NCBI GenBank assembly: GCA_964646415.1
Contig: CAZYEL010000002.1
Coordinates: forward strand, 8,538 to 72,537
Origin: an uncultured Candidatus Saccharibacteria bacterium
GTDB taxonomy: Bacteria > Patescibacteriota > Minisyncoccia > UBA6257 > 2-01-FULL-56-20
Direction of reading: 5' to 3'
DNA: 64,000 nucleotides
Shown: positions 15,551 through 54,994 of the stretch, in pieces
Numbering within the stretch: the stretch's first letter is position 1
Layout of the letters: each line of letters begins with the position of its first letter
The notes under the pieces: generated by a model
The model's database searches: none
Seen by the model: only the letters and a program-made list of their open reading frames with translations
What the model was told of the DNA's origin: nothing
Program-made: the position numbers and the translations under genes

Positions 15551-15590
15551 CATATACAAACTTATTGCACGTGCAATAAGTTTGTATATG
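15551..15590. repeat. 40-bp perfect palindrome catatacaaacttattgcac|gtgcaataagtttgtatatg
   Basis: Read directly from the sequence. It is AT-rich and lies between the convergent EamA pseudogene (+) and uvrA (-). A partial copy of the leader-element arm (atcaacgaataacg, 15517..15530) lies just 5' of it. Confidence 0.8.
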
Positions 15591-15695: not shown

Positions 15696-18269
15696 TTATG
15701 CGCCTGCTCTTCCCAATACTTTGCGGAGATACTCCCCCGTAAAACTTCCTTTCTTACGCGCAATCTCTTCGGGAGTGCCCGCCGCCACAATTTCACCTCC
15801 CTTCTCCCCTCCTTCGGGACCAAGGTCAATCACCCAGTCCGCGGTCTTGATGACGTCCAAGTTATGCTCGATTACGACAACCGTGTTCCCGCGGTCAGCG
15901 AGCCGTTGAAGGACTTGCAGCAATTTATCCACGTCCGCGAAGTGAAGTCCCGTCGTCGGCTCGTCCAAAATATACAGCGTACGGCGCGTGTCGCGCTTCC
16001 CCAATTCCGACGCAAGCTTCACGCGCTGGGCTTCGCCTCCAGAGAGCGTCGTCGCGGACTGTCCTAATTCCAAATACCCCAATCCAACCTCATCCAAAAT
16101 TTTGAGACGATCCGCAAGCCACGGGATATCATCGAAGAATTTCACCGCTTCCTCAATCGTGAGTTTCAAAATCTCAAATATATTTTTACCTTTGTATTCC
16201 ACCGCAAGTGTCTCGCGATCGAAGCGTTTGCCTTTGCAGATATCGCACTGGATATAGACCGTCGGCAAAAAGTGCATCTCGATTGCGAGCGTGCCATGCC
16301 CCTCGCAATTCTCACACCGTCCGCCGGGAACGTTGAAACTAAACCGGCCGGGCTTGTAGCCGCGTACTTTCGCATCTGGCGTTGCGGCAAAAAGGTCGCG
16401 GATAAACGTCCAAGCACCCACATAGGTCGCCGGGTTTGAGCGCGGCGTGCGTCCGATTGCCGACTGGTCAATGTTAATCACGCGGTTCACGTGCTCCAGT
16501 CCGAAGATGCCGCTGTGCACGCCTTCCTTATAGCTCGAACCATGCCACCGGTTCGCGAGCGTCTTGTAAAGCACGTCATACACCAAACTCGACTTCCCCG
16601 AACCCGAGACGCCGGTTACCGCCGTGAAACGCCCTACGGGAATTTCCACGTCGATGTTCTTGAGATTATTTTCCTTTGCGCCTTTGATGGAAATGAACTT
16701 CGTCCCCTTGCCGATGCCGCGCCGTTCGCTCGGAACATTAATAAATCGCTTGCCCCGGAGGTACTCAAGCGTAAGCGACTGGGGAAATGCTCCCATGCTC
16801 TTCGCCGAGAGTATTTCCGGTATCGCACCTTGCGCCACAATCTTTCCTCCGTGTACTCCCGCGCCGGGTCCGAAATCAACCAGGTGGTCGCTCTCACGGA
16901 TGGTTTCCTCATCGTGCTCCACCACCACAATCGTGTTCCCCAGGTCACGGAGGTCATGAAGCGTCTTGATAAGCTTTGCATTGTCGCGCTGATGCAATCC
17001 GATCGTCGGCTCGTCCAAAATATAGAGCGTCCCCACGAGGCGCGAACCCACCTGCGACGCGAGGCGTATCCGCTGCGCTTCGCCGCCGGAAAGTGTTCCC
17101 GCCCGCCGCTCCAACGTAAGGTACTCGAGCCCCACATCAAGCATAAACTTCAGCCGGTTTTTAATCTCACGGAGCGGCGCTTCGGCAATTTCCTTGAAGC
17201 GTGCGGCGCCTTTAAGTTCAAGCTTTCCCATAAAGTCATATGCCTCGCCGATGGAGTAGGCAACCACTGATGCGATATTTTTCCCCTGAATCAAGACGTT
17301 CAGACTTTCCTCTTTAAGCCGTTTTCCCGCGCATATAGGACAAATTTTCTCGGACCACAAATCCTCCGTGCCCAATCCATGGCATTGCGGACATGCACCA
17401 TACGGACTGTTAAACGAGAAAAGGCGCGGTTCGATTTCCGGAAACGAGAATCCGTCGTTCGGGCAGGTAAATTTTGCGGAAAGAGACACCTCCTTGTCCG
17501 TCACGACCGTCACCACGTCATTGCCGTACTTCAAAGCAGTCTCAATCGCTTCGGAGAGCCGTAAGCGGTTGTCCTTTATGTCTTGTCCGCCAGAGGCGGA
17601 TCCGCCTTCGGCGGAAAATCTCACGCCCGCGGGAATACGGTCAACTACCAAATCAATGGAATGAGCTTTGTAGCGGCTAAGCTCCACCCGCTCACGGAGC
17701 GTTTTATAAATTCCATCCACACGCACCTCGGAGAACCCCGCATTCAAAAAGTCGTAGAGCAGCTGGTAATACTCCCCTTTCCGTCCGCGCACGACAGGCG
17801 CAAGAATCACAATGTTTTTCTTTGATTTATTTTCATTCGAAATCTGAATCGCAACATCCACAATTTCCTCATTCGTCATTTTCTGGATTTCTTTGCCGCA
17901 CTTGGGACAATGCGGCTTTCCCGCACGGGCAAAAAGCACGCGGAGATAGTCGTAAATTTCCGTCACCGTTGCCACCGTCGAGCGCGGATTCGAAGAGTGG
18001 CTCTTTTGGTCAATCGAAATTGCCGGTGAGAGCCCTTCAATATCGTCTATATCCGGCTTATCAAGCCGCCCCAAGAACTGCCGCGCATATGCGGAGAGCG
18101 ATTCGATATAACGGCGCTGGCCTTCCGCGAAAATCGTATCGAACGCCATGCTCGATTTCCCCGAACCGGAAAGGCCGGTAAACACGACCATTTTGTCGCG
18201 CGGTATTTCGAGATTTATGTTCTTTAAATTGTGCTCGCGCGCTCCTTTTATGATGATTTTGTCTTTCAT
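15696..18269 (-). CDS. uvrA: Excinuclease ABC subunit A
   Basis: Two ABC ATPase modules ([18 protein letters not shown]) with zinc-finger Cys clusters. I set the start at the ATG giving [18 protein letters not shown]. The 39-aa track extension is an alternative-start artefact. Confidence 0.95.
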
Positions 18270-18310
18270 GATTCCTTGCTTATATGCGCAATTCTGATTC
18301 CCAATATGCC

Positions 18311-18342
18311 GAGGATTAACCTCCTGCAGGAGGTTAATCCTC
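18311..18342. promoter_or_regulatory. 32-bp perfect palindrome gaggattaacctcctg|caggaggttaatcctc, about 42 nt upstream of the uvrA start
   Basis: Read directly from the sequence. It is centred on CTGCAG. Its position matches an operator overlapping the uvrA promoter. It is not a canonical LexA box. Confidence 0.6.
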
Positions 18343-18718
18343 GAAACATTGATCATAACGCAGAAACCGCCCCCTCCATGCGGCATATAGAGGGTAGCAG
18401 GGGAAAGTGTACCTCATCACCAACAAAAAACCACCTTCTCGCGGCGGGTTATACGGAGAGTTTCCTGCTGGCTTTAGCAGGAAACTCTATCTTGGTTCTT
18501 CGCCTCGCGCTTGAAACTCCTCCGCTGGTTTCACAAGTTATTGACTCTCAACGTGATACCCAAGGGCAACACATGCTTCGAGTCCTTGTGGTGAAATATT
18601 GTTTTGAACGGAAGTTTTGCACGAGCCTCAGAACCGTAATAATTTTCCCGCTTCTTTCCAAAAAGTCAATGGGGACATGGGGAGATGTGGTGGATAACCC
18701 CCGAGAAAAAGTGGATAA

Positions 18719-20836
18719 CTAAGTCTTTTCTGTGGATAGACTTTTCATATTCTTTGCGAGAACCTTGATTTCATCCCGCAAAATCGCGGCAAGCTCGAAA
18801 TTCAGTCCTTTCGCGGCTTCCCGCATCTCCCGCTCCTTCTCCCGCATAAGTTTTTCCATGGCGGTTTTGGATTTGGGGATGGGTTTGAGCTCAAGCTTCA
18901 ATACCTCTTCGGGCAAAATACTCGCGATTTTTCGGACAATCGTCTTCGGTGTAATGCCATGCTTTTCGTTATAAGCGATCTGGAGCTTCCGGCGCCGTTC
19001 GGTCTCCGACATCGCGCGCCTGATCGAACCCGTGATGTGATCCGCATACATGAGCACTTCCCCGCGCACGTTCCGCGCGGCCCGCCCGATGGTCTGGATG
19101 AGCGAGGTCTCACTCCGCAAAAATCCTTCCTTGTCCGCATCGAGAATCGCGACAAGCGAGACCTCCGGCAAATCAAGCCCCTCACGCAGGAGATTTACGC
19201 CCACGAGTACGTCGAACCCTCCTTTCACTTCTGAACCTTTCCGGAGATTCGTGAGAATCCGGATGCGGTCGAGCGTTTTTACATCAGAGTGCAAATATGC
19301 AACTTGTATCCCCTTGTCGCTTTTCGCTTGTCGCTTGTTACTAAGGTACTCCGCAAGGTCCTCCGCCATCTTTTTGGTAAGCGTCGTCACAAGTACCCGC
19401 TCTTTTGCCGCAATGCGCTCTTCAATGCGCGGGATCAAGTCGTCCACCTGCCCGCGCGCGGGGCGAATGGTGATTTTGGGGTCGATAAGCCCCGTTGGTC
19501 GTATTATCTGTTCTACGACCAACCCTGAGCCCGTCGAAGGGTCGGACTTCTTCAACTCATACAGCCCCGGAGTCGCAGAAGTGTATATCACCTGCCCCAC
19601 GCGCTTTTCGAACTCCGCGAACTTCAACGGCCGGTTATCCGCTGCGGAGGGAAGACGGAACCCGTATTCGATGAGCGTTCTCTTCCGCGATGCGTCGCCA
19701 TGATACATCCCCTGAATCTGCGGCACGGTGATGTGGGACTCGTCAATGATAGTCAGGAAATCGGGCGTTCCCAAGGTTCGACCTTGAGAATCCCCTAAAG
19801 GTCGAACCTTTGATGCACTTCGAGGAAAGTAGTCGAGGAGCGTATCCGGCGGCTCCCCTGCCGCGCGCCCGGAAAGATGCCGCGAGTAATTCTCGATGCC
19901 GTGGCAATAACCGATCTCGCGAATCATCGCGACGTCGAACTTCGTCCTGCGCTCGAGCCGTTCCGCCTCGAGAAACTTTTTGTTGTCCTCAAAATATTTG
20001 AGTTGCGCCTTGAGCTCCTCCTGAATCGCGCCGATTGCACGCTCACGGGCGTCCTTTTCGGTAATAAAGTGCTTTGCGGGCGGAATAATCACTTCCTCAA
20101 GCGGCGGAGTCTTCCCGTGCCGGAAACCCACGACGGGGTCGACTTCATAAATTGCGGCGATGGTGCCGCTCCGGACTTCCATGTTGTAAATCACCTCTCG
20201 GTCGGGCGGCATTATTTCCCAGTTTTCCCCGCGGAGACGGAACGTGCCGCGTTTCAAGTCGGAATTCGTGCGCGTAAACTGGAGCTCGATAAGTTTCCGC
20301 GCAAATTCTTTCCGTTCCATCCTATCCCCCACCTTGAACCGAAAAATATTCGCGGCATAGGTTTCGGGGGCGCCTAAGCCATAAATGCAGGAAACGGATG
20401 CCACCACAATCACGTCCCTGCGCGTGAGAAGCGCCGTTGTCGCCGCGTGGCGCAGCTTATCAATCTCGTCGTTGATGAGCGCTTCCTTGTCGATATAGGT
20501 GTCGGACGACGGAATATACGCCTCCGGCTGGTAATAATCGTAGTAGGATACGAAATAATTCACCGAATTCTTCGGGAACAGTTCCCTGAATTCATTCGTA
20601 AGTTGCGCCGCGAGCGTCTTGTTGTGCGCAATCACGAGCGTAGGCCTCTGCACCGCCGCAATCACGTTTGCCACAGTAAATGTTTTTCCGCTCCCCGTGA
20701 CACCCAAAAGCGTCTGGTGGCGATATCCTTTCTCCAAACCAGAAACAAGCTTCTCGATAGCTTGTGGCTGGTCACCAGCAGGCTTTAAATCTTTTGCGAG
20801 TTCGAATCCTGCCATAGCAGAAAAACTATACAGCAA
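18719..20836 (-). CDS. uvrB: Excinuclease ABC subunit B
   Basis: The helicase motifs (GVTGSGKT, DESH) and the UvrB beta-hairpin region are present. It also carries an unusual 19-aa in-frame insertion (see the repeat feature at 19766..19822). Confidence 0.95.
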   Translation of the reverse strand: MLYSFSAMAGFELAKDLKPAGDQPQAIEKLVSGLEKGYRHQTLLGVTGSGKTFTVANVIAAVQRPTLVIAHNKTLAAQLTNEFRELFPKNSVNYFVSYYDYYQPEAYIPSSDTYIDKEALINDEIDKLRHAATTALLTRRDVIVVASVSCIYGLGAPETYAANIFRFKVGDRMERKEFARKLIELQFTRTNSDLKRGTFRLRGENWEIMPPDREVIYNMEVRSGTIAAIYEVDPVVGFRHGKTPPLEEVIIPPAKHFITEKDARERAIGAIQEELKAQLKYFEDNKKFLEAERLERRTKFDVAMIREIGYCHGIENYSRHLSGRAAGEPPDTLLDYFPRSASKVRPLGDSQGRTLGTPDFLTIIDESHITVPQIQGMYHGDASRKRTLIEYGFRLPSAADNRPLKFAEFEKRVGQVIYTSATPGLYELKKSDPSTGSGLVVEQIIRPTGLIDPKITIRPARGQVDDLIPRIEERIAAKERVLVTTLTKKMAEDLAEYLSNKRQAKSDKGIQVAYLHSDVKTLDRIRILTNLRKGSEVKGGFDVLVGVNLLREGLDLPEVSLVAILDADKEGFLRSETSLIQTIGRAARNVRGEVLMYADHITGSIRRAMSETERRRKLQIAYNEKHGITPKTIVRKIASILPEEVLKLELKPIPKSKTAMEKLMREKEREMREAAKGLNFELAAILRDEIKVLAKNMKSLSTEKT
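19766..19822 (-). repeat. In-frame 57-nt palindromic insertion inside uvrB, encoding RSASKVRPLGDSQGRTLGT
   Basis: It lies between the conserved DYFP and PDFLTIIDESH segments. The DNA holds inverted copies of aaggttcgacctt and aaggtcgaacctt (19771..19812). Confidence 0.6.
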
Positions 20837-20975: not shown

Positions 20976-21383
20976 TTATTTTAAACACTTTGGAAGGCCA
21001 TTAAACCGAACGCAATCTTTAAATGTTTCCCACATAGAATCAACCTCATTTTTAGTATATATATTTTTCTGTACTTCTATCGTTTTATCCATAAACTTTT
21101 CATAAAATTCTTGATACCTCACGTAATTATTATTAATGTAATCGATTGCTACGACAACAAAGGCTATTGCCACCGCAACGGTCACTCCCACTATAAGGTT
21201 ATGGATGACTTTTATTCCTTCTCTTGTTTTTTCTATCTCAGAATCCAAAACGGAAACCTTTTTACCTAAAGTAGTTATGAGCGCATCCACCTCCGTACTT
21301 CCACTTCCCGCTTGACTTCCTGTCGCTGCTGCCCTACTTTCTGTCCCGGCTCCTGCGGCTGTCTCAGTTTGGATCTCGGGCAT
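20976..21383 (-). CDS. Hypothetical single-pass membrane protein (AT-rich cassette, gene 3)
   Basis: A low-complexity Ala/Gly/Ser/Thr N-terminus, one transmembrane helix (IVGVTVAVAIAFVVVAI), and no recognisable domain. Local GC is clearly lower than in the flanks. Confidence 0.45.
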   Translation of the reverse strand: MPEIQTETAAGAGTESRAAATGSQAGSGSTEVDALITTLGKKVSVLDSEIEKTREGIKVIHNLIVGVTVAVAIAFVVVAIDYINNNYVRYQEFYEKFMDKTIEVQKNIYTKNEVDSMWETFKDCVRFNGLPKCLK

Positions 21384-21387
21384 ATTA

Positions 21388-21768
21388 TCAATCTACTGTA
21401 ATAATGTCGTTTCTATCGAAGCTCACTACTTGATCGTTAATTTTAAAAATAATTCTATAGATGCCTTTTTCTGGAAAACGAGCCCCAATGAGGTTAATCA
21501 CTAGATTTGCATTGGGCTTGTTTTCGAGATTGACAAGTTTCATTTCCGAAGAAACAATTTTATTACCACTGGGCGATATAATTTCGATTGTTTTCTTTTT
21601 ATCAAAAATCACACCCGTCACGTTAATTGCAATTGAAAACCTCGGATGAAAAGCTGGAAGACCATCCGTTTTAATCAGATCAAATATACCTATAACACTT
21701 AATTTTTTTTCTTCCGAAAAAAAGGCGTTCTCGCATACATGCAGAAAATTTATCTTAAAATCATTCAT
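21388..21768 (-). CDS. Hypothetical small protein (AT-rich cassette, gene 2)
   Basis: 126 aa with beta-rich composition and no recognisable motif. It lies 20 nt downstream of the protease gene and 4 nt upstream of gene 3, which suggests translational coupling. Confidence 0.4.
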   Translation of the reverse strand: MNDFKINFLHVCENAFFSEEKKLSVIGIFDLIKTDGLPAFHPRFSIAINVTGVIFDKKKTIEIISPSGNKIVSSEMKLVNLENKPNANLVINLIGARFPEKGIYRIIFKINDQVVSFDRNDIITVD

Positions 21769-21788
21769 TGTTTTTTACAGAATATTAC

Positions 21789-22814
21789 TCACTTCCACCC
21801 CTGCTCCATAATTCTCCATCCGACCTGTTCTTGCGGGACTTGAATCGGCCCCTGCGGGGTCTGCTGCACCATATTCACTTGCTGTTTGCGGTATTCGATG
21901 GAAAGCTCAAAGTGGCGTGATTCCTGCCAACTTTCGATAAACGCAATCTTATATTGCTTTCGATTTTGCATAGCATTTATACCCAACTCGTTTTCCGGGT
22001 TCCAGAGCGTTTCAAGGTCCATATCTTTCCTGTACTCCTCAAACAGCTCCGTCATCGCCTTCGCAAGAAGGTTATCCGCGTACGCAACCGACTTCAAACC
22101 CAAGTCCTCCTTCGCCTCCTTTCGCCCGATGAAATACTGGTGCGAGTAAAGTTTTTCGGTGAAGTAATCAACAATCTTTTCCACTTCATCATCCTTCATT
22201 GGCGCTTTATGACTCTTCAGCAACCGCTTCGCGAGGATGCGGATGAGGTTATGAATACGGTTTACGTTCCCGAGCGCCAAAGGATGAATCTGCGGATTCG
22301 ACTCCACGAATTTCGAGAAGATACGCGAAAGCTCTTCGTCGTTCTTGATACCGAACTTATTTTTCGCCAAATCGAAATATGCCATCACGTCCTCGACGGA
22401 AATCGGGATTCTGTTCTGCGGGTTCTGGGGGTCTTGCGGGTTGAAAACATTCGCCGTTGAGGGGTCGATCGGCGAGATTTCTGAAAGGTCGCTCATCGCA
22501 ATTTCATCCGCGCCGAGAGCAATCATCGTCGCCGCACTGTGCGCCTTATACGGCACGAGTACGGAAAACTTATCACAATACTCCCGAATCATGGACACAA
22601 TCCTCCACGGCACCATTGTGTCGCCTCCGGCACTATAGAGAAACAGGTCGATATTCTGGGTTTTCCCGATTGCGCGGAGTTGCTTGCTCACCACGGGAAT
22701 CACGTCCATCGCAATCCGCGCGTTCACCGGTCCTGTCCGGTCGCTTGTGACATAGGTAATTACCCGCGAATTCCGTAGTCCTTGTATCTGATGTATGAGT
22801 TGTTTCTTATCCAT
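21789..22814 (-). CDS. SDH-family (ClpP-fold) serine protease (AT-rich cassette, gene 1)
   Basis: The core IDLFLYSAGGDTMVPWRIVSMIREYCDKFSVLVPYKAHSAATMIALGADEIAMSDLSEISPIDP matches the serine dehydrogenase proteinase (ClpP-class) core (...HTPGG...AMSGGT.IALAADEI...PVDP). About 170 extra C-terminal residues follow. Confidence 0.7.
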   Translation of the reverse strand: MDKKQLIHQIQGLRNSRVITYVTSDRTGPVNARIAMDVIPVVSKQLRAIGKTQNIDLFLYSAGGDTMVPWRIVSMIREYCDKFSVLVPYKAHSAATMIALGADEIAMSDLSEISPIDPSTANVFNPQDPQNPQNRIPISVEDVMAYFDLAKNKFGIKNDEELSRIFSKFVESNPQIHPLALGNVNRIHNLIRILAKRLLKSHKAPMKDDEVEKIVDYFTEKLYSHQYFIGRKEAKEDLGLKSVAYADNLLAKAMTELFEEYRKDMDLETLWNPENELGINAMQNRKQYKIAFIESWQESRHFELSIEYRKQQVNMVQQTPQGPIQVPQEQVGWRIMEQGWK

Positions 22815-22858
22815 CGCAATAAGGCAATTATACTCCAGTCATCCCAACTTTCCAACAG

Positions 22859-22904
22859 TTTCGTACTATTCGCTTATTCGTACGAATAAGCGAATAGTAC
22901 GAAA
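22859..22904. promoter_or_regulatory. 46-bp perfect palindrome tttcgtactattcgcttattcgta|cgaataagcgaatagtacgaaa at the 5' end of the AT-rich cassette
   Basis: Read directly from the sequence. It is centred on GTAC. It lies 45 nt upstream of the protease start and 44 nt downstream of the MazG-like stop. Confidence 0.75.
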
Positions 22905-22947
22905 GAATGACCACCCAACAGCCAGAAATCCGTATATGCGATTCTTC

Positions 22948-23325
22948 CTACCGCGTATCCCCGTCGCCGTGGAGCGTCCCGCGCTCCTTACGCGAGAAAA
23001 GCTTTTCGATGTTCCCCTTCGCAACTTCTTCGAGCGAGAGCCCAAGCTCGGTTGCAACCTGCGCCACGTACCACAACACATCGCCAAGTTCCCCGCGAAG
23101 CGCCGCCTTTCGCTCATCGCTCATAACCCCACCGTCATCCCGAAACGCTTTCTTCACTTTTTCCGCAACCTCCCCCACCTCCCCGGCAAGTCCCAAAACC
23201 GGATACACCAAATTACTGCCGCTATTCGGATAAATCGCCGTCTTGCGGGATTCCTTTTGGTATTCTTCGAATGTCATCGCCGTGAATTTATTTTTTATGG
23301 CAACCCTGCCTTCGACAAAGGGCAA
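22948..23325 (-). CDS. MazG-like nucleotide pyrophosphohydrolase (all-alpha NTP-PPase)
   Basis: The motif EVGEVAEKVKK...ELGDVLWYV is typical of small MazG-domain proteins. Confidence 0.7.
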   Translation of the reverse strand: MPFVEGRVAIKNKFTAMTFEEYQKESRKTAIYPNSGSNLVYPVLGLAGEVGEVAEKVKKAFRDDGGVMSDERKAALRGELGDVLWYVAQVATELGLSLEEVAKGNIEKLFSRKERGTLHGDGDTR

Positions 23326-23410
23326 AGTTCATGCTTGTGCGGTCTCGCGAACCCCCGTAAAGTCCCGCCCCTCGCGGAACCACGGGGCGCCATCCTAGCG
23401 CAAAGTCTTT

Positions 23411-24061
23411 TTAATTTGGAAGTTTGGCTAATGGACATAGTTCGTGCCGATGAGGGCGAGCTGGGCAATATTTTCTTCCATAATCAATCAGTAAATATGT
23501 CGCCCTGAACCAGTCCTTCTTCGGGATGATTACCATCAAGTCCCGCTCGATTTTCTCCGGCGTCTTTTCGCGGCTCAACCCCAGCACTCTCGACAAGCGC
23601 TTCACGTGCGTATCGACGGCAATCCCCTCCACGACGCCATACGCGTTCCCAAGGATTACGTTCGCGCTTTTCCGCCCAACGCCGGGAATCGTGAGCATCT
23701 CCTCCATCGTGCGGGGTAGTTTTCCGTCAAACCGCTCCTTCACTGCCTTCGCCGCCGCAAGGATATTCCGCGTTTTCGCCCGGAAGAAGCCACATTGGTG
23801 GATATCCTTCTCAAACTCCCGCGGATTGGCTTCCGCATAGTCCTTGAGTTTGAGATACTTCTTAAAGAGCGCGGGCGTCACCTCGTTCACCTTCTTATCG
23901 GTACACTGTGCGGAAAGCTGGACCGCCACAAGCAATTCCCAGTTGTTTCCATACTTTAAAGCGATTTTCGGGTCCGGAAAGAGCTTCTGAAGCGTATGAA
24001 AAACCTTCGCCGCCCGCTTCTTAAGTTTTGAGAAATCTTTTTCGATTGCCATAGGCACCAT
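23411..24061 (-). CDS. nth: Endonuclease III
   Basis: The HhH-GPD motif (IPGVGRKSANVIL), the catalytic Lys/Asp spacing and a C-terminal Cys cluster. Confidence 0.9.
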   Translation of the reverse strand: MVPMAIEKDFSKLKKRAAKVFHTLQKLFPDPKIALKYGNNWELLVAVQLSAQCTDKKVNEVTPALFKKYLKLKDYAEANPREFEKDIHQCGFFRAKTRNILAAAKAVKERFDGKLPRTMEEMLTIPGVGRKSANVILGNAYGVVEGIAVDTHVKRLSRVLGLSREKTPEKIERDLMVIIPKKDWFRATYLLIDYGRKYCPARPHRHELCPLAKLPN

Positions 24062-24133
24062 TATACCCCGCGCGGGAAATTTTCCGGGATTTTTTCCCGC
24101 CCAATCCTTGGGAGGATCATAATTTCACGATAT

Positions 24134-24162
24134 TTGACAATCCTCGTCAAACCTGCTATCAT
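24134..24162 (+). promoter_or_regulatory. Sigma70-type promoter TTGACA-17-TATCAT for the 3D-domain gene
   Basis: TTGACA at 24134..24139 and TATCAT at 24157..24162, with a 17-nt spacer. A small GC hairpin followed by a U-tract (24182..24204) sits in the leader, before an AAGGA Shine-Dalgarno sequence. Confidence 0.6.
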
Positions 24163-24223
24163 ATCCCCTAACAATTGAATACCCCTTCAAAGGGGGGTTT
24201 TTATTTAAGCGGCGCAAGGAATC

Positions 24224-24667
24224 ATGACTAAAACACTTATTCTTACCCTTATAACGGGTTCGCTCATACTCTACCCTTCCGCAACAGGGATTACTATGGC
24301 GGACGAGAAAATTGCCGGCATTCCCGCCGAAGCAACGCTTCTTCAGAGTGCGCCGCGGGCCCATATTGCGAAGCAAGCATCCATGGTTACCGTCTGGATT
24401 ACCGCATATTCAAGCACGCCCGAGGAAACGGACGACACGCCCTTCATCACTGCAAAAGGCACGCTGGTGCGCGATGGCATCATTGCCGCGAACTTCCTTC
24501 CCTTTGGGACCAAAGTCAAGATTCCTTCGCTTTTTGGGGATAAGATTTTTGTGGTGGAAGACCGCATGCACCGCCGGAAAACGAACAACGTGGACATATG
24601 GATGCCTACGAAGATGGACGCGCTCCGGTTTGGCGCGCATAAAGTGCAGATTGCGGTGTTGAATTAA
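24224..24667 (+). CDS. Secreted 3D-domain (RlpA/MltA-like double-psi beta-barrel) protein
   Basis: A signal peptide, then the 3D domain motifs (ITAYSSTPEETDDTPFITA...GTLVRDGIIAAN...GTKVKIP). Confidence 0.7.
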   Translation: MTKTLILTLITGSLILYPSATGITMADEKIAGIPAEATLLQSAPRAHIAKQASMVTVWITAYSSTPEETDDTPFITAKGTLVRDGIIAANFLPFGTKVKIPSLFGDKIFVVEDRMHRRKTNNVDIWMPTKMDALRFGAHKVQIAVLN

Positions 24668-24700
24668 CAGGGCAAACTAATAACTTATAACCAATAACTG

Positions 24701-24730
24701 GACCCCGCGAAAGCGGGATTTTTATTTATT
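24701..24730 (+). terminator. Rho-independent terminator
   Basis: The hairpin ccccgc-gaaa-gcggg followed by atttttatttatt. Confidence 0.6.
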
Positions 24731-24756
24731 GATAATCTACAGGTAAAATAGAAGCT

Positions 24757-25326
24757 ATGAGAAAAGTACTCAAAAAAAGTTTCTTCAATCGCCCGACGCT
24801 CAGCGTGGCGAAAGAGCTTCTCGGGAAGTTTCTTGTGCGGCGGATGAGCACAAAAACAGTCGCAGTGATGCTCACCGAAGTTGAGGCGTACGACGGACCA
24901 GAAGACAAAGCGTCACACGCTTCGCGAGGCATCACTCCCCGCACCAAAATCATGTTTGGTAGGGCGGGGCGTTTCTACGTCTATCTCACCTACGGCATGC
25001 ACTGGATGCTGAATGTTGTGACAGGCGCGAAAGGATATCCGGCTGCAATTCTTATCCGAGCGGGAGTCGCTTATCACTTACCGCTTACCGCCTCCAAACT
25101 CATCAGTGGTCCGGCGCGGCTTACGAAATATCTCCGCATCGGGAAAAGTTTCAACGGGAAACCAGCAACGAGAAAAACCGGGCTCTGGTTTGAAAACAGA
25201 GGAATAAAAATCAGTGCGAAAGACATTGTTGCAGGCAAACGAATCGGCGTGGAATACGCCGGTGCATGGGCGAAGAAACCCTACAACTTCAAATTGCGCC
25301 TTCCCGCTTCAAAATCGCGCGCTTGA
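24757..25326 (+). CDS. mpg: DNA-3-methyladenine glycosylase (Mpg/AAG family)
   Basis: The segment EVEAYDGPEDKASHASRGITPRTKIMFGRAGRFYVYLTYGMHWMLNVV matches the AAG-family core. Confidence 0.85.
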   Translation: MRKVLKKSFFNRPTLSVAKELLGKFLVRRMSTKTVAVMLTEVEAYDGPEDKASHASRGITPRTKIMFGRAGRFYVYLTYGMHWMLNVVTGAKGYPAAILIRAGVAYHLPLTASKLISGPARLTKYLRIGKSFNGKPATRKTGLWFENRGIKISAKDIVAGKRIGVEYAGAWAKKPYNFKLRLPASKSRA

Positions 25327-25537
25327 GCTTCACTCCGCGGTTATAGCCGCCAATCTCTCCGTCGGAACGAACCACACGATGGCAAGGAATCTTCGGGTCA
25401 AAATTCTTAGCCAAAATATTTCCCACCGCACGTGAAGCATCGGGATTCCCTGCGCGGCGTGCGACTTCCTTGTACGTCAACGCCTTCCCGCAAGGAATTT
25501 TTGAAACCACTGCGTACACCCGCTCTTGGAAAGTCAT
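25289..25537 (-). CDS. ogt: Methylated-DNA-protein-cysteine methyltransferase, DNA-binding domain only
   Basis: The active-site PCHRV motif and the helix-turn-helix YKEVARRAGNPDASRAVG. It is short (82 aa) and lacks the N-terminal domain. Confidence 0.8.
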   Translation of the reverse strand: MTFQERVYAVVSKIPCGKALTYKEVARRAGNPDASRAVGNILAKNFDPKIPCHRVVRSDGEIGGYNRGVKLKRAILKREGAI

Positions 25538-25950
25538 GCGAGTAAATTCAAGCCCGTCTCTGCGTCCGGCATGCGCTCAAGCTTTCCGGAAAACGCCTCA
25601 AGGCGCACTTCGCATGTTCCGGAAACGACAATTTCCTTCACGTGCCCCGCCTTGGCAGCACAATCCTTTCCTGAAAACACCCCATGCACATGCACTGCAT
25701 ATTCCCCCTTGCAAATGCCGATATTACCGGTGAGCGATGCAATCTCCACCTCCCTCATTATCGTCTCAAGATATTGCCTTGCCTCGAAATCATAGTACGC
25801 AAGCGTAACTCTTAAAGCGGCACCCAGCCCTTGGAATGTGCCCGCGCGGATGTGCGAATCTCGTGCGAAGGATATGATCCCCGTAAGCAACTCTTCCCCC
25901 TTGTCGAACCGAAGTATGGATACAGAACCTTCCCTTAGAATTTCTTTCAT
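25534..25950 (-). CDS. PPC (DUF296) domain protein
   Basis: The segments GEYAVHVHGVFSG...GHV...GTCEV are typical of the PPC/DUF296 fold. Confidence 0.6.
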   Translation of the reverse strand: MKEILREGSVSILRFDKGEELLTGIISFARDSHIRAGTFQGLGAALRVTLAYYDFEARQYLETIMREVEIASLTGNIGICKGEYAVHVHGVFSGKDCAAKAGHVKEIVVSGTCEVRLEAFSGKLERMPDAETGLNLLA

Positions 25951-26768
25951 TCCACTATCATAACTTCCCCGCCCTTGCGCCGCAAAAAGCCTTCCCGCTC
26001 AAGCGCACGGAATACTTTATCCATACGCTCGCCGGATTCACCGGTGAATGCCACAAACGACAAAACCGCCACGCGGGATTTCTCCGCAAGGAGCCGTACC
26101 ACGCGCCCGCGAAGCTCCCGGTCAGAACCTCTGAACGGCGATTGACGGCGATATTCCGCGCTTCTTCGGTTGGGATTCAAGACGCTTTTCCCCAGCATGG
26201 AGCCGTAATCCATGAGCGCCCAATACCACTCACGCGGCTTCTTTCTATCAAGCGCTTCTGCCGCGATTGCTACTACCTCTTCTTCCGGAACATTGCGTCG
26301 CCGCGGGAAAAAGTGGTGGAGAATCGCGCGCCGTATGTTTGTCTCGATAAACGTCGCAGGCGCATTGAAAGCGAAAGCGGCGATAGAGCCGGCCGTTGCC
26401 GGGCCCACGCCGGGAAGCGTTTCAAGCGCCTCGGGCGTGCACGGTAATTTACCGCAATACTCTTCCATGACAATTTTTGAAACCCGATGGAGTGCGAGCG
26501 CGCGGCGATTATATCCCAATCCCTGCCACACCCGGAGTACGCTCGCGGGAGAAGCGTTTGCAAGCGCGCGGAAATTCGGGAATGCTTTGAGAAACTCCCC
26601 GTACTTTCCCCGCACGCGTTCCACCTGCGTCTGCTGGAGCATTATTTCCGATACCGCGATTGCGTAGGGATTCCGTGTGCGTCGCCACGGAAAGTCTCTG
26701 CCGTGCGCGCGATAATAATTCCGCACGATGCGGCGAAATTGTGCGACTTGCTCTTCGCTCTTTGCCAT
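25947..26768 (-). CDS. MutY-like HhH-GPD adenine glycosylase, without a recognisable Fe-S cluster or NUDIX domain
   Basis: The N-terminus YYRAHGRDFPWR, the QQTQVERV motif and the HhH-GPD motif LPGVGPATAGSIAAFAF. Confidence 0.75.
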   Translation of the reverse strand: MAKSEEQVAQFRRIVRNYYRAHGRDFPWRRTRNPYAIAVSEIMLQQTQVERVRGKYGEFLKAFPNFRALANASPASVLRVWQGLGYNRRALALHRVSKIVMEEYCGKLPCTPEALETLPGVGPATAGSIAAFAFNAPATFIETNIRRAILHHFFPRRRNVPEEEVVAIAAEALDRKKPREWYWALMDYGSMLGKSVLNPNRRSAEYRRQSPFRGSDRELRGRVVRLLAEKSRVAVLSFVAFTGESGERMDKVFRALEREGFLRRKGGEVMIVE

Positions 26769-26771
26769 GCG

Positions 26772-27068
26772 CTATAGGCTTGTTTCCATGAGCGGCATCC
26801 CCTTCTTCGCGCATCCTTCCGCCTGGCATACGCCAGGCTTCGGCGATACTCCTCCGCAACCGCCAGTGCACATGTAATGCGTCCCGCGCTTCCGAAAACT
26901 CTCATACGCGAGATATCCGGAAAGTACGACAATAAGCACACTTACCCAAACAGGCACCGAACGCCCCGCAAACGACATTTCCCATCGAAGCGCAGCCCGC
27001 ACAAGATGTGCAAGCGCGATTACCCCAAACACGACCCCGGTTGCTTTCACCAATGAGCGAATGTTCAT
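26772..27068 (-). CDS. Small membrane protein with a C-terminal Cys-rich motif, possibly metal-binding
   Basis: I trimmed it to the M giving MNIRSLVKATGVVFGV... The C-terminus reads CTGGCGGVSPKPGVCQAEGC. It overlaps the msrB end by 4 nt. Confidence 0.35.
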   Translation of the reverse strand: MNIRSLVKATGVVFGVIALAHLVRAALRWEMSFAGRSVPVWVSVLIVVLSGYLAYESFRKRGTHYMCTGGCGGVSPKPGVCQAEGCAKKGMPLMETSL

Positions 27069-27508
27069 TTTGATTTGGAATTTTTCTTCGTGTCTTTTTG
27101 AAGTTCGAGACAAACGGAGTTGATGCAAAAATGTTCGCCGGAAGGAAAAGTCTCGTCTTTGAAAATATGCCCAAGATGCGAACCGCATTTCGCACACATT
27201 ACTTCAATGCGATGCATTCCATGCGAATCATCATTCTCCAGCCGCACCGCCCCGGGAAGAGCCCGACTGAATGAAGGCCATCCGCGAAGTCCTGCCGGCC
27301 CCTTCTCTGCGTCGAATTTCGTGTCCGACGGAAAAAGCGCCGCTTCGCATACGCCACATTGATACACCCCGTCGTCAGTCGTATGGACATATTTTCCGCT
27401 ATAAGGCGCTTCGGTCCCCTTCTCCCGCGCCACCTTGTAAAGCTCCGGCGCAAGCTTTCTCTTCCACCCGGCTTCGTCGTCTGATATATCTTTTGAACCG
27501 CATACCAT
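27065..27508 (-). CDS. msrB: Peptide-methionine (R)-S-oxide reductase
   Basis: The CxxC pairs (CGVCEA, CAKCGSHLGHIF) and the catalytic motif RYCINSVC, as in the SelR domain. Confidence 0.9.
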   Translation of the reverse strand: MVCGSKDISDDEAGWKRKLAPELYKVAREKGTEAPYSGKYVHTTDDGVYQCGVCEAALFPSDTKFDAEKGPAGLRGWPSFSRALPGAVRLENDDSHGMHRIEVMCAKCGSHLGHIFKDETFPSGEHFCINSVCLELQKDTKKNSKSK

Positions 27509-27875
27509 GCCGCTTTATTGTACCAAATGAAAAGCTCCAAGGGAGGAAATCACAAGCCCCGGTATCCCGGGGCTTGTGCTGCCTGTGTTATCTGCGGCGC
27601 TTGCTGCTTTTCCGCCGCTTGCTCACACGCTTCACTGTTCTCTTTTTCGTCTTCTTTGCCTTTTTCTTTTTTGCCATTTTTCAAACTACTATCCCAATAT
27701 GAACGCCGACCTTTGAGGCGGCGGCGATCGCATCTCGCTCCGTCTGCAAAAAATTTTTAAAAAATAGAATGCCTCGCCCTTATTAAAAATTGTAGAGCGT
27801 ATTGCGCATATGTACAGAGAAGTTATGCACAACCCTGCGAAAATTTTCCGAACCTTCGATGGCGGTGAAAGAAAA

Positions 27876-28061
27876 TCAGCGCGGAGAAGAATTCACGCTG
27901 CCGCTTATCAATGCCGGAGGAAAGTGAGGCGTGTTTCCGCCGACAAGCGATATGCCCTTCGAACGATAGAATAAAAGCGCCAAAACACTGACGGCAACCG
28001 CGACAACAAACACCACGATATGCATCATTCCCTCCCGGTCGGTAATTTTCATAACCCTCAT
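27876..28061 (-). CDS. Possible small transmembrane peptide coupled to the dinB stop
   Basis: 61 aa with one hydrophobic helix (IVVFVVAVAVSVLALLF). It overlaps the dinB stop by 4 nt. Support is weak. Confidence 0.25.
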   Translation of the reverse strand: MRVMKITDREGMMHIVVFVVAVAVSVLALLFYRSKGISLVGGNTPHFPPALISGSVNSSPR

Positions 28062-29131
28062 TCTAAACCCTCCACCCGTACTCCGACAAGCCGTACGGGC
28101 TTCTTGGCGGGATTCTCCCGGGCATCGAAAAAAGGCATAAGCAACTTGAGCATTTCAAAGGCGAGCGCGTCCGCAGACGCAAGCGCATCGGGAAATGTCC
28201 GCGATCTGGTCATTGTCCTGAAATCAGCGAAGCGCACCGTGAGCACCGCGCGCCGGAAAGCGGAAAAGCCCTGCCGCCCAAGCCGCGCAACAACGGCATC
28301 CGCAAGCGCCCGCACCCGCGCCGAGACGAAGGAAGGCTCTCCCGTATCTTGTTCAAACGTCTCCTGCTCGCCCATAGACTTTGTTTCTTCTTCAATACCC
28401 ATCGGCGTGTCATCCCTGCCGCGCAAACGCTCATATAACTGCACGCCCCATACCCCGCACAGTTCCCGAAGCTCTTCGGAGGAAAATGGCAGGAGATCGC
28501 GCACGAATCGCGCCCCGCGCCTCGCGAAAAGCGCCTCGGTCTTCGGCCCAACCCCGGGAATTGCACGAAGCGGGAGCGGCGCAATCGTTCCCGCCGCCGC
28601 CTCTTCCCGTATCACGGTAAGTCCGTCGGGCTTATGCATCTCCGTCGCAATCTTTGCAATAAAGCGATTCGGACCGATGCCCACCGTCGTAGTAAGCCGC
28701 TCTTTCTTCCCTATGGAACTTTTAATCTCCCGCGCAATTTTCTCCGCCGCTTGATATGAGCCGGCAGAGGAAAGGTCGAGATATGCTTCATCAATGCTTG
28801 TCTGCTCCACGCAAAGGACTTTCTCCGAAGCAATCCCCATAATCCGCCGTGAAACTTCCCCATATTTTCTCATGTTCACGGCGCAAAACACCGCAGCAGG
28901 TTTCCCTGCCGCGCGGGCTTCTTCGGCCAAACGCCACGCCCGCGAAATCGGCATCGCGGAATGCATCCCGTATTCACGGGCTTTATAATTTGCCGTCGAT
29001 ACCACGCCCCGCCCCTCCCCGCCCTTGGGGTCCGCACCCACCACAAGCGGTTTTCCGCGGAAACGCGGATTGTCCCGCTCCTCCACGGAAGCGAAGAAGG
29101 CGTCCATATCCAAATGAGCGATTATTCTCAT
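28058..29131 (-). CDS. dinB: DNA polymerase IV (Y-family)
   Basis: The N-terminus MRIIAHLDMDAFFASVE and the motif SIDEAYLD. I set the start at the ATG at 29131; the track M at 29140 is a TTG. Confidence 0.9.
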   Translation of the reverse strand: MRIIAHLDMDAFFASVEERDNPRFRGKPLVVGADPKGGEGRGVVSTANYKAREYGMHSAMPISRAWRLAEEARAAGKPAAVFCAVNMRKYGEVSRRIMGIASEKVLCVEQTSIDEAYLDLSSAGSYQAAEKIAREIKSSIGKKERLTTTVGIGPNRFIAKIATEMHKPDGLTVIREEAAAGTIAPLPLRAIPGVGPKTEALFARRGARFVRDLLPFSSEELRELCGVWGVQLYERLRGRDDTPMGIEEETKSMGEQETFEQDTGEPSFVSARVRALADAVVARLGRQGFSAFRRAVLTVRFADFRTMTRSRTFPDALASADALAFEMLKLLMPFFDARENPAKKPVRLVGVRVEGLE

Positions 29132-29346
29132 ACTCTCCAATCTATACCTCGATATGGATGCGGGAAAGGGGTCGGGGAAACGGGAGCTTCCCCGTTGCGG
29201 AAGTATTGAAACCGCTGGGTTTCAAGGAGCGGAGCGACGCATCCATGTCTAAATGAGAAATTATTCGCATGGCTGCATTATCACCCTCCAGGAATAAAGA
29301 AGCTTCGAGAATTCTCGAAGCTTCTTTCCCTCCGGACGCATACCTT

Positions 29347-29637
29347 CTAGAGATTGTTCTGGATATCAACGTCAAGCATATCCACGTCATTGTCCAAATC
29401 CAGACTCCCGGAATCCGCGGCATTGAGGTCACGCTCAATCGCTCCCGTGCTGTCGGCTGCCGGCGCCGCCGGAGCAACTGTTTGCGGAAGAGGAGGTACC
29501 GTGGCGGGTGCGGCAACTTGACCACTTTGAGTGGGCGAAGCTATCTCTGAACCGGTACCCACGTACCACCACGCAACCGCTGCCACAACCAGAACCACCA
29601 CCACTGCGACTATCCAAGCTGTTTTATTTTCTTGCAT
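29347..29637 (-). CDS. Small membrane-anchored protein with a Pro/Ala-rich middle and an acidic C-terminus
   Basis: An N-terminal transmembrane helix (WIVAVVVVLVVAAVAWWYV) followed by a low-complexity tail. Confidence 0.35.
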   Translation of the reverse strand: MQENKTAWIVAVVVVLVVAAVAWWYVGTGSEIASPTQSGQVAAPATVPPLPQTVAPAAPAADSTGAIERDLNAADSGSLDLDNDVDMLDVDIQNNL

Positions 29638-29655
29638 TGTAGGTAATGAAAATTA

Positions 29656-30336
29656 TTACGACGACGTTGCGTTTGTGCCGGTGGCTCTCACGCTATCATC
29701 ATCCACGCCCGGGATGCCGCGAAGCGCCTGAATCGCTTTCTGCACCGCCTCGCGCGCGCTTTTCATTGCACCGTCGCGCAAATCCATGAGGTCTTTTTTA
29801 AGCGCAACGTGCGACGCCTGGAATGCCGCGCGGAGTCTCGCGTCGGTCGTGACCGTCACCTGGTACGTTTTTTTTGCTTGAACTTCCGCCGCCGTCCTCG
29901 CACCGGCAATTGCCGCGTTCGCTTCCTGCAACGCCGCGTTCACCGCCGCTACGTCTTTTCCCGCCGCGTGCGCCTTATCGCGCCGGCTCTCCACTTTCGC
30001 AAGCGTCGCATCATACCTCTCAAGCACATTGGTGAAATGCGTCGCCCATTTTTCATTCAAAGCGCCAAGTCGCTCAAAAAGATTGTCCGCGGCTTGTTTC
30101 TTTTTCTCGTCTTTTACCTGTTTCAGTTTTGCCTGGAACTCCGTTCGCGCCGTTTTCATCCTCTCCGCCGCATCTTTCTTCGCCGTCTCGAACTTCACCC
30201 GCAATTCTTCGACCGCTGCGCGGCGCACCTCCCCCCGCGTCGTCGTCGCGGGAGCCTGGGCGCCCGCAATCGCAACCGCTGCAACATACGCCACCACCGC
30301 ACCTCCTCCCATAAAATTCTTAATAATTGTGCTCAT
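29656..30336 (-). CDS. Secreted coiled-coil protein, hypothetical
   Basis: A signal peptide (MSTIIKNFMGGGAVVAYVAAVAIAGAQA) followed by long Ala/Lys/Glu-rich helical repeats. Confidence 0.45.
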   Translation of the reverse strand: MSTIIKNFMGGGAVVAYVAAVAIAGAQAPATTTRGEVRRAAVEELRVKFETAKKDAAERMKTARTEFQAKLKQVKDEKKKQAADNLFERLGALNEKWATHFTNVLERYDATLAKVESRRDKAHAAGKDVAAVNAALQEANAAIAGARTAAEVQAKKTYQVTVTTDARLRAAFQASHVALKKDLMDLRDGAMKSAREAVQKAIQALRGIPGVDDDSVRATGTNATSS

Positions 30337-30449
30337 ACTGTGAATTGTATAAGGTAAAATCCGGCTTTCCAAGCAAGGTTACCCACAGAACACGAACGAA
30401 TCATGAATTATCTGGGGAAAAATGCTTTAAGTATTCCCCCGCCCCAGCC

Positions 30450-30917
30450 CTATAATTCCCCAACTTCCCGTAGTGAATGCTTCATTATTACGTCGCCCTT
30501 GCCGAATAAAAACTTCCCGGCGAACTTCTTCCCCTCAAGGAACAACGGGAACCAATAGCGGTCATCGGGCCACATGGAATCGTAGGGAATCTCGTCTGCG
30601 CCGAACCACCGCGGCTTCATCTCGTCGCTCTCACATGGCTCTCCGCTGAATTCCGTAGCGCGGAAAATATGCACCTCAAGAATCTCCGGGTTCCCTCGGA
30701 ATTCAAAGCTGATGATGCCCACCTTCACCGCGTCACTCACTGCAATCCCCGCTTCCTCGCGCAATTCCCGCTGCATCGCCTCCTCAATCGTCTCCCCTTC
30801 CTGCACTTTTCCGCCAAAGCCATTCCACCGCCCCGCCCCGAACCCGCGCTTCTTGAGCCCCAGCAAAATCCGTGGGGGCTGATGCACCAGGCAAAGCGTC
30901 AAAGCCTTCTTCGTCAT
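30450..30917 (-). CDS. NUDIX hydrolase (MutT / 8-oxo-dGTPase-like)
   Basis: The Nudix box [24 protein letters not shown]. Confidence 0.8.
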
Positions 30918-31180
30918 TCGAGCGACATAATCTGCAATCCCTTCGCTTTTATCTCCTCTTCGGGCCAGTATAACTTATCAACTTTAAATACCCGGGCATA
31001 CGTCACTTTCTTCTCGACTTTTCTCCCTGTGTATCCTTTCGTTTTCGGGTCCCACTCCTCGAGCAGAAGCGTGTCGCCCTCATGTACCTCGAATTCATTC
31101 AGGCGCAGCTCGTATTTCTTCTTGCCTGATGCCACGTCGTCGAAATACTCGGGCCATATTTTCTTTTTAATTATTGCCAT
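30914..31180 (-). CDS. DUF3850 (ASCH/PUA-like) domain protein
   Basis: The segment [23 protein letters not shown]...[19 protein letters not shown] matches the DUF3850 pattern. Confidence 0.6.
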
Positions 31181-41074: not shown

Positions 41075-41114
41075 CCCCTCATTCTACCTTTCGCGCGAAA
41101 GGTAGAATGAGGGG
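41075..41114. promoter_or_regulatory. 40-bp perfect palindrome cccctcattctacctttcgc|gcgaaaggtagaatgagggg, about 110 nt upstream of secA and 30 nt downstream of the ArsR-family gene
   Basis: Read directly from the sequence. Its core TACCTTTCG-CG-CGAAAGGTA is related to the motifs at 41447..41470 and 20858..20881. Confidence 0.7.
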
Positions 41115-52242: not shown

Positions 52243-52312
52243 ATCAACGAATACCGAATGGATTGCGAATTTACGAATTCGTACATTCGAAATAGATTCG
52301 TTATTCGCTGAT
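52243..52312 (-). repeat. Conserved leader element, copy A, ending 8 nt upstream of the mraZ ATG
   Basis: Plus strand atcaacgaataccgaatgg...ttcgttattcgctgat. It has about 19-bp terminal inverted repeats and shares both arms with the copies at 58777..58859 and 59411..59489. Confidence 0.75.
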
Positions 52313-53209: not shown

Positions 53210-53959
53210 TTACGCCTTTCCCAAAAATACCTTCTCCAATATCCCGCTCTCCACTATTTTTTTCGATTCTCCTTCCGCAACTACTTTTCCTTTATCGAGC
53301 ACATACGCGCGGCTCGCGATGGAAAGTAGGGAAACAAGATTATGCTCCACGATAAGTATCGCGGTTCGGTGCCGGCCTGCCCGCCGAAACCTCAGCGTAG
53401 GCGGGTCGCTTATTTCTTTTATTTTTGCAAACACTTCTTTCACGATTTTGGGAGCCAAGCCAAGCGAGGGCTCGTCCAAGAGCAATACTTTGGGTTCGGT
53501 AATCATGCCGCGCGCAATTGCGAGCATCTGCTGCTCGCCGCCGGAGAGCATTCCCGCACTGCGGCTCCGCTTGTGTTTCAAGACCGGAAAGAAGTCCATC
53601 ACCTCCACGATGCGCCGCTTTCGCTCTGTTTTGTCTTTTACCAAAAATCCCCCCACCTCCAAATTTTCTTCGACGTTCAATCCCGTGAACACCCGCCGCC
53701 CCTGCGGCACGAAAGAAATACCGCGTGCAACAATTTCGTGCGGCACCGGCTTGATTGCTGCGCCATGCCAACGCACCTCACCGCTTTCGAGAGGCGCGAG
53801 TCCGAATATCGCTTTCAAGATGGTGGACTTCCCCGCTCCGTTCGGCCCCATGAACGCCACCACTTCCCCCTCGTCAAGTGAAACGCTCGCGCCGTCGAGT
53901 GCTTTGACACCGCCATAATGCACATGCACATTGTTTACTTGTAGTAACATGTCTTTCAT
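53210..53959 (-). CDS. livF: Branched-chain amino acid ABC transporter ATP-binding protein (LivF-like)
   Basis: Walker A GPNGAGKST, signature LSGGEQQM, Walker B LLLDEP. It has about 11 extra residues (PPTLRFRRAGRH) before the H-loop. Confidence 0.85.
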   Translation of the reverse strand: MKDMLLQVNNVHVHYGGVKALDGASVSLDEGEVVAFMGPNGAGKSTILKAIFGLAPLESGEVRWHGAAIKPVPHEIVARGISFVPQGRRVFTGLNVEENLEVGGFLVKDKTERKRRIVEVMDFFPVLKHKRSRSAGMLSGGEQQMLAIARGMITEPKVLLLDEPSLGLAPKIVKEVFAKIKEISDPPTLRFRRAGRHRTAILIVEHNLVSLLSIASRAYVLDKGKVVAEGESKKIVESGILEKVFLGKA

Positions 53960-54046
53960 AAATTCTAAATTCTAATATCGAAATTCGAAACAATATCTAA
54001 TTTCAAATGTTTAAAATTCAAAACGGTTTGGGTTATTGTCCTCCAA

Positions 54047-54961: not shown

Positions 54962-54994
54962 TTCGGAGGAGTATATTAATATTAGCATCGCGTA

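Follow-up and report, generated by a model that had tools for sequence, protein, structure and literature searches.

The 64,000-nucleotide stretch of DNA analysed here in full (the window; contig CAZYEL010000002.1 of assembly GCA_964646415.1, from an uncultured Candidatus Saccharibacteria bacterium) contains a uvrB gene that carries, in frame, a short palindromic insert. This hairpin is probably one copy of a family of palindromic repeats of the repetitive extragenic palindrome (REP)/REPIN type, which is spread through the Patescibacteria; the copy would be tolerated in a loop of UvrB. We propose that the family is moved, or was formerly moved, by a Y1 (HUH) tyrosine transposase resembling the REP-associated tyrosine transposases (RAYTs), which would act on single-stranded hairpin DNA and would not duplicate its target. 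One copy would have entered UvrB at a loop that varied beforehand, where the helix that ends in DYFP is followed by the beta-strand with helicase motif II (DESH). It would have survived because it consists of 13 whole codons, has no stop and adds residues that are harmless at that place, where they would be translated as a disordered loop. The copy would then have been inherited by a small group of Liptonbacteria lineages; elsewhere this permissive site holds different palindromes or is empty.

The inserted segment of UvrB and its variation among relatives

The uvrB coding sequence lies on the minus strand at 18719..20815 and specifies 698 amino acids from the publicly annotated start; the open frame extends to 20836. 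Its product is identical (100%) to a database protein described as 'excinuclease ABC subunit UvrB [Candidatus Liptonbacteria bacterium]' (P0001) and is matched by solved UvrB structures at E 8e-232. The translation around the insert reads ...PPDTLLDYFPRSASKVRPLGDSQGRTLGTPDFLTIIDESH... and includes 57 nt, or 19 codons, that are extra in comparison with canonical UvrB (RSASKVRPLGDSQGRTLGT; 19766..19822, minus strand) and that comprise a lineage-variable loop plus the hairpin repeat. Exactly 19 residues have no counterpart in the solved UvrB 9gy7_E, with DYFPK before them and DFLLIIDESH after them in the alignment. The motif II codons, as read from the sequence and its translation, are at 19733..19744 (minus strand), 7 codons downstream of the extra segment.

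The REP/REPIN-like repeat unit itself measures 39 nt, or 13 codons (KVRPLGDSQGRTL; 19772..19810), and is made of two 13-nt arms and a 12-nt loop. Arm 1 (plus-strand AAGGTTCGACCTT; 19773..19785) is in itself a mini-palindrome (AAGGT-TCG-ACCTT) and arm 2 (plus-strand AAGGTCGAACCTT; 19798..19810) is its reverse complement; these 13 nt per arm are the perfectly paired part of an inverted repeat with 16-nt arms (19773-19788 and 19795-19810; 94% complementary, 6-nt spacer). Folded as single-stranded DNA, the 57-mer reaches −14.0 kcal/mol, versus −4.9 ± 1.7 kcal/mol in 200 shuffled versions, none of which was as good (z = −5.25); for the opposite strand z = −5.54. A perfect 13-bp stem closed by a 12-nt loop, with z of about −5.3, corresponds to the short imperfect palindromes of REP/REPIN systems. 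An earlier note on this DNA, made from the sequence alone, had described an in-frame palindromic insertion of 57 nt in uvrB, and the 19-residue gap, the perfect 13-nt arms and the folding scores all bear this out. The identical UvrB, insert included, is encoded in the Candidatus Liptonbacteria metagenome-assembled genome GCA_016190325.1 (contig JACPQV010000030.1) and in three independent sequencing runs; the insert is therefore not an assembly artefact.

In an AlphaFold model of the protein (mean predicted local distance difference test score, pLDDT, of 75), residues 335-348 form a coil with pLDDT below 50, just ahead of the strand that carries DESH (354-358) and the helix that follows it. The model fits an insert that occupies a disordered loop directly before the motif II strand, and it is consistent with the tolerated surface loop that had been suggested for it; the location first given, 'domain 1b/3', is better replaced by this position directly before the motif II strand.

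The 120 closest UvrB proteins, 74-100% identical to that of the window, were aligned, and the stretch from DYFP to DFLT(I/V)IDESH was found to hold from 0 to about 35 extra residues. A segment that differs in length among orthologues to this extent agrees with the insertion that had been supposed. One protein, 85% identical overall (P0007), has no insert and reads DYFPEGFLT; a 6-residue loop (HTADGKP) is a frequent state, and many different long inserts are found elsewhere in the sample. In comparison with the nearest relatives, the site already had a variable loop of about 6 residues. The size first given to the insert, 19 residues, thus stands against the solved structures, but against the nearest relatives the repeat itself contributes only 39 nt within that loop.

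L005 and L007 (proteins 91% identical) and L006 (85%) share the hairpin of the window, and its two 13-nt arms are 100% identical in all three. Residues that flank the hairpin inside the insert are wholly different between the window and these three loci; the insert peptide is conserved among four relatives. Other relatives in the 85-91% identity range have different short GC-rich hairpins at the site (L009 and L013) or none (L011). Among more distant relatives, L131 and L132 have a palindrome of the CGCGGAT...ATCCGCG type at the same place; in L135 that place is taken by a perfect 17-bp hairpin, starting from the conserved Pro codon of DYFP. The sequence of the L135 hairpin had no match in the metagenome collection, and this hairpin may be local in origin, for example a local inverted duplication. 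The family to which the window hairpin belongs is found at the same loop in L083 (UvrB 59.5% identical), in the opposite orientation and in another frame (DLQGSTLSPKGRTLKS), and at a different UvrB site in L215; judged from these two loci, UvrB has been hit independently more than once. Between lineages the loop length of orthologous UvrB copies differs by exactly one codon, so that the reading frame is kept. A protein with PRSAS similarity (P0024) was considered as an 'empty site' and set aside: its serine codons are of a different type (TCN versus AGY).

A dispersed hairpin family and its association with a Y1 transposase

Species-representative genomes and a metagenome collection were searched with the pattern AGGTTCGACCT N6-22 AGGTCGAACCT. 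At least 126 copies were found in at least 117 stretches of the genome collection (about 0.5 chance matches estimated) and the pattern occurred in at least 120 stretches of the metagenome collection. The window copy is unique within its 64 kb, with 2 mismatches allowed per arm (doublets) or in the 13-mer: the only other match is a chance-level single arm at 12281 (2 mismatches in the 13-mer). A small palindromic element that had inserted without breaking the frame, with further copies to be sought inside open reading frames (ORFs), had been envisaged in the earlier note; such copies do exist, often inside ORFs, in these many other stretches.

Among the matches listed, the named genomes are nearly all Patescibacteria, with a few Omnitrophota and others. 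The lineages represented are Kaiser- and Saccharibacteria, Paceibacterota, the Morani-, Yanofsky-, Taylor-, Nealson-, Zambryski-, Vogel-, Adler- and Wolfe- groups, and Microgenomates; some assemblies have at least 3-8 loci, again among the matches listed. The same 11-nt core recurs across distant phyla of the candidate phyla radiation (CPR). The family consensus can be written (C)(A/G)AGGTTCGACCT ... AGGTCGAACCT(T/C)(G), that is, two inverted cores of 11-15 nt that are 6-21 nt apart, and many loops resemble that of the window copy (TGAGAATCCCCTAA), for example TGAGAATTCGGGGCTA and TGAATTCCCTAA. Bases flanking the cores co-vary, lengthening the small and the long hairpins by a mean of 1.9-2.9 bp versus 0.33 expected. 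Single arms, and doublets in which the order of the arms is reversed, also exist.

Only one match was found among the 2.9 million viral contigs of IMG/VR (L134, 5185-5222, in the 56-kb contig IMGVR_UViG_3300049982_000330), and hence there is no sign that the repeat is spread by phages. No Rfam family reached its gathering score: the best, a miRNA precursor model, gave 20 bits versus 69 (E 0.09), which is chance level. The arms are free of stop codons in all six frames, and this was considered as an adaptation and rejected, since an estimated 40% or so of random 11-mers are likewise stop-free. Variant arms (AGGTCCGACCT...AGGTCGGACCT and AGGTCCGACCT...AGGTCGTACCT) were noticed in two loci that contain a RAYT-like gene (L051, 840-879, about 150 nt from the gene; L067, 722-756, about 1.3 kb from it), which suggests a family wider than the exact search pattern covers.

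Copies of the family are often found in coding sequence. An open frame of at least 250 amino acids runs through the hairpin in 54% of copies, versus 67% of random positions in the same loci, and 73 of the 126 genome copies listed lie in frame and well inside ORFs of at least 200 amino acids with Pfam matches (127 Pfam families); the predominantly extragenic location that is a trait of REP/REPIN sequences is not seen. The host ORFs include class I aminoacyl-tRNA synthetases (8 hosts), TsaD, Dus, KsgA, PNPase, DnaG and UvrB; they are mostly genes for translation and RNA modification, and no bias to repair genes was seen. Gene-internal copies use both orientations and all three phases, and the peptides that recur from them are RFDL / (K/E)VRP / GST(L/S/F) and RSNL / (K/E)VEP / GRT(L/S/F). 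On the evidence of these sequences, some of the odd low-complexity inserts in CPR proteins (KVRPL...QGRTL, RFDL...RSNL, GSTL...KVEP) would be the translation of a repeat at the DNA level, not features of the proteins themselves; software for alignment and for structure prediction should handle such inserts as repeat-derived.

In two loci (L017 and L095) a pair of copies brackets an ORF with an HUH motif (MPNHFHL) and a YIHxNP tyrosine motif. The bracketed ORFs match Pfam Y1_Tnp ('Transposase IS200 like') with 41 and 30 bits, the cut-off being 23, and their best NCBIfam match is 'REP-associated tyrosine transposase' with 52 bits, below the cut-off of 80. Among the matches listed, 8 of 117 loci from genomes and 9 of 120 from metagenomes contain a RAYT-like gene by tblastn. 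Copies lie within about 65 nt of both ends of the RAYT-like gene in L017, L095, L130, L139 and L255, and in several other loci they adjoin one end of the gene or sit within it. A RAYT gene flanked by copies is the 'REPtron' layout by which REP/RAYT systems are defined (PMC3337134, PMC3733652), and the present family has this layout in the genomes of these five loci. We also observed three hairpin copies within RAYT-like genes, apparently in frame (L046, 1441-1474; L056, 335-368; L183, 4045-4078).

No target-site duplication of 3 nt or more was found at family copies, as expected for Y1 transposition. Matches of 2 nt between the flanks numbered 15 versus 7.8 expected, with uncertain boundaries.

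Arm conservation and competing explanations

Several observations weigh against the interpretation of the uvrB hairpin as one copy of a REP/REPIN-type family. There is a single copy in the 64-kb window, and a search of the window and of the Liptonbacteria loci L001-L013 found no RAYT-like gene; a place for the uvrB copy in an active system of its source genome is thus only a candidate reading. The GTAG/CGTC tag that defines the published REP superfamilies is absent from the family, and copies number at least a handful per genome of about 1 Mb, versus hundreds for classical REPs. No pair of empty and filled sites from near-identical strains was found that would define the boundaries of the insertion and its target. 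A neighbour-joining tree does not group the UvrBs with the hairpin as monophyletic (3.5% bootstrap); a single ancestral UvrB insertion was considered and dropped on this value, and the history of the site requires either losses and replacements or repeated gains. Finally, the arms are conserved beyond what is expected of a passive passenger, which hints at function or at homogenisation.

The last point deserves to be set out. The UvrB set was gathered by protein homology; in three of its lineages, with a gene-wide third-codon identity of 0.55-0.59, the arms are identical at 26 of 26 positions, and both the loop and the flanks of the insert differ between these lineages. Orthologous host genes that are 50-76% identical have a copy at the same site and in the same frame, with identical arms and diverged loops and flanks; these pairs were found by the exact-match pattern, so that the identity of their arms is partly built in. 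The arms evolve more slowly than the loop, which raises the question of whether copies are maintained for a reason. This conservation may be due to selection that acts on the stem, to homogenisation among copies or to insertion that occurred repeatedly.

A comparison at a second gene bears on the same question. Three of the genome matches place the hairpin at one aligned position of leucyl-tRNA synthetase (LeuRS). Among 123 close LeuRS homologues, picked by protein similarity, 68 have no insert at this position, 15 have intact hairpin peptides and about 8 have mutated versions (5 flagged automatically and 3 recognised by eye among 'other' inserts), so arm decay does occur; there are about 27 unrelated inserts, some of them of another repeat family (RTSDV...TSDVQ), and a whole hydrolase domain in 5. 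It was observed that the arms line up with native F and GR codons, and that in P0328, P0342, P0347 and P0351 the same loop holds either an alpha/beta-hydrolase domain of about 200 residues or the other repeat peptide (RTSDV...TSDVQ). The mixture of inserts at this loop favours a permissive loop filtered by selection over a sequence-specific target, and we favour the view that the UvrB site before motif II and this LeuRS loop are both permissive positions for many kinds of insert.

According to the first alternative, the hairpins are selected cis-elements: a factor conserved in CPR bacteria, possibly a domesticated RAYT-like protein or an RNA-binding or RNA-processing protein, would recognise the specific sequence of the stem in DNA or in mRNA, and gene-internal copies would be retained on that account. 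This overlaps in part with the interpretation that we prefer, as the origin by insertion may be the same. It would account for the identical arms in the window, L005, L007 and L006 despite low third-codon identity and wholly different flanks, for the retention of copies with identical arms by hosts of 50-76% identity, for the excess of intact over mutated arm peptides in the LeuRS sample (15 versus about 8) and for an 11-nt core common to distant CPR phyla. We nevertheless regard it as unlikely. The 50-76% pairs carry the built-in bias described above, decayed copies exist, and the element is dispensable at any one site, most orthologues of the host genes being without it (68 of 123 LeuRS and most UvrBs). 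Its presence in unrelated genes, in both orientations and all phases, argues against a gene-specific role, and no known RNA family matches it. A somewhat wider proposal, namely an old, low-copy system of hairpins and RAYTs throughout the Patescibacteria, in which the stem sequence is selected at orthologous sites in essential genes of hosts about 50% identical, seems to us doubtful, if slightly less so. If it were true, intragenic hairpins would be functional cis-sites for a domesticated Y1 enzyme or for a process at the RNA level, and not neutral passengers, and the family would be a case of REP-like elements living chiefly within coding sequence.

Alternatively, the palindrome could have been made locally and not inserted, for instance when a stalled fork led to a template switch or an inverted duplication, the UvrB site being a mutational hot spot. 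Several unrelated palindromes do occur at this site in different lineages, and the 17-bp hairpin of L135, unmatched in the metagenome collection and starting from the conserved Pro codon, is what such a process could leave. For the window copy we consider a local origin very improbable, because its palindrome has the exact core of a family present in hundreds of unrelated places and beside transposase genes, and because a LeuRS loop that accepts many kinds of insert, up to a whole hydrolase domain, points to permissive, selected sites and not to site-specific mutation.

Scarcely any weight can be given to an ordinary lineage-specific functional loop of UvrB with incidentally palindromic DNA, or to an artefact of assembly: although the segment adjoins motif II and its peptide is conserved among four relatives, none of 200 shuffles folds as well (z about −5.3), in other hosts and frames the same nucleotides encode other peptides, the segment is missing from relatives at 85-88% identity, and four independent assemblies agree on the identical sequence.

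Other repeats in the window and comparison with known systems

The window has a second palindromic repeat, unrelated to the hairpin in uvrB and made of two tandem GC hairpins (CCGCCAGAGGCGGATCCGCCTTCGGCGG; 3 copies versus 0 expected). The copy at 17587-17614 is in frame inside uvrA (15696..18269, minus strand), where it encodes 10 residues; four close orthologues of uvrA lack this insert, and a fifth (L009) has it twice. Both nucleotide excision repair genes of the window thus bear in-frame palindromic repeats, of different families. The copies at 54040-54067 and 54942-54969 are intergenic, between livF, livG and livM. UvrA and UvrB of close Liptonbacteria and Parcubacteria have many lineage-specific in-frame inserts at several sites (uvrA of L006, L009 and L013; uvrB of L131, L132 and L135), many of which resemble translated repeats (FPRTRESKVSQGTLDSRFHGNDRK, RGLTRI...INAD...IGVNQR, PSASSGRG).

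The livF gene (53210..53959, minus strand) had been put forward as a second, weaker case of an insert encoded by palindromic DNA. The insertion is real, 11 residues (PPTLRFRRAGR; 53369-53404) being extra in comparison with the solved homologue 1ji0, but its DNA is not significantly palindromic: the folding z is +0.44 and 130 of 200 shuffles are as good. Other long palindromes are found at 18302-18351 and 18457-18488 (between the uvrB stop and the uvrA start), 15551-15590, 22859-22904, 41075-41114 and 52243-52312. They are mostly intergenic; some are perfect, with 20-, 21- and 27-nt arms, and some are AT-rich with TTCGTA/TACGAA-like words. On the side of uvrB away from uvrA, at about 20976-31000, genes for DNA repair and for nucleotide sanitation are densely clustered; their products are two HhH-GPD glycosylases, a purine DNA glycosylase, an MGMT-like DNA_binding_1 protein, a DinB-type polymerase (IMS), MazG and NUDIX.

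The earlier note had likened the uvrB insert to Correia repeats and to Rickettsia palindromic elements. Correia elements are about 100-150 bp long, have terminal inverted repeats and duplicate a TA target. The family described here shares with them, and with other miniature inverted-repeat transposable elements moved by DDE transposases, small size, lack of autonomy, inverted symmetry and the possibility of co-transcription with genes; it differs in that one hairpin of about 40 nt makes up the entire unit, and neither a terminal-inverted-repeat structure nor a target-site duplication of 3 nt or more was found; this half of the comparison is accordingly the weaker. As to Rickettsia palindromic elements (RPEs), RPE-1 is about 100-150 bp long, and we know of no transposase dedicated to these elements. 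The host here is Candidatus Liptonbacteria, and the unit is 35-45 nt and is tied to a Y1 transposase. The likeness is one of behaviour only: both are in-frame palindromic repeats in intact ORFs, thought to be tolerated in loops (PMC3733652). In that sense the comparison was apt, the more so as intragenic REPs have been published that include two in uvrB of R. conorii (PMC3733652).

Many prokaryotes were surveyed for REPs by Di Nocera et al. (2013), whose catalogue equated some of them with RPE-4 and RPE-6 of Rickettsia (PMC3733652). The catalogue reported in-frame REP singlets or dimers inside uvrA, uvrB, uvrD, polA and recBCD, including the two REPs of R. conorii uvrB and several in uvrA of Thioalkalivibrio and O. 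terrae (PMC3733652). The uvrB and uvrA genes of the window, both with in-frame palindromic repeats, resemble these cases; the published ones are GTAG/CGTC-tagged and come from Proteobacteria, Verrucomicrobia and Rickettsia, whereas the family here is untagged and CPR-wide. The uvrB insert is therefore a new example of a known phenomenon, since intragenic REPs in uvrA and uvrB have already been published for other bacteria. A literature search on REP-like repeats in CPR bacteria or Patescibacteria found no paper in the collection that was searched.

The REP/REPIN-RAYT systems of E. coli, Pseudomonas and Stenotrophomonas are the nearest in kind. They too consist of short imperfect palindromes of about 20-40 nt, often arranged as inverted doublets that fold into longer hairpins, with a Y1/HUH gene flanked by copies and no duplication of the target. 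Unlike them, the present family has neither GTAG nor CGTC at the foot of the hairpin (upstream GTAG in 1 of 124 copies, downstream CTAC in 2 of 124, CGTC in none and GACG in 1); the conserved flank is C-(A/G) ... (T/C)-G instead. Its associated transposase stays below the NCBIfam RAYT cut-off (52 versus 80 bits), its copies are almost as frequent within ORFs as randomly placed positions are, and its core is common to several phyla, whereas published REP families are largely species-specific (PMC6006769). The usual picture of REP/RAYT systems is one of extragenic, high-copy, species-specific repeats; the present family is low-copy, has a core common to CPR phyla, and is found in frame in housekeeping genes at about chance frequency, in genomes with very little intergenic DNA.

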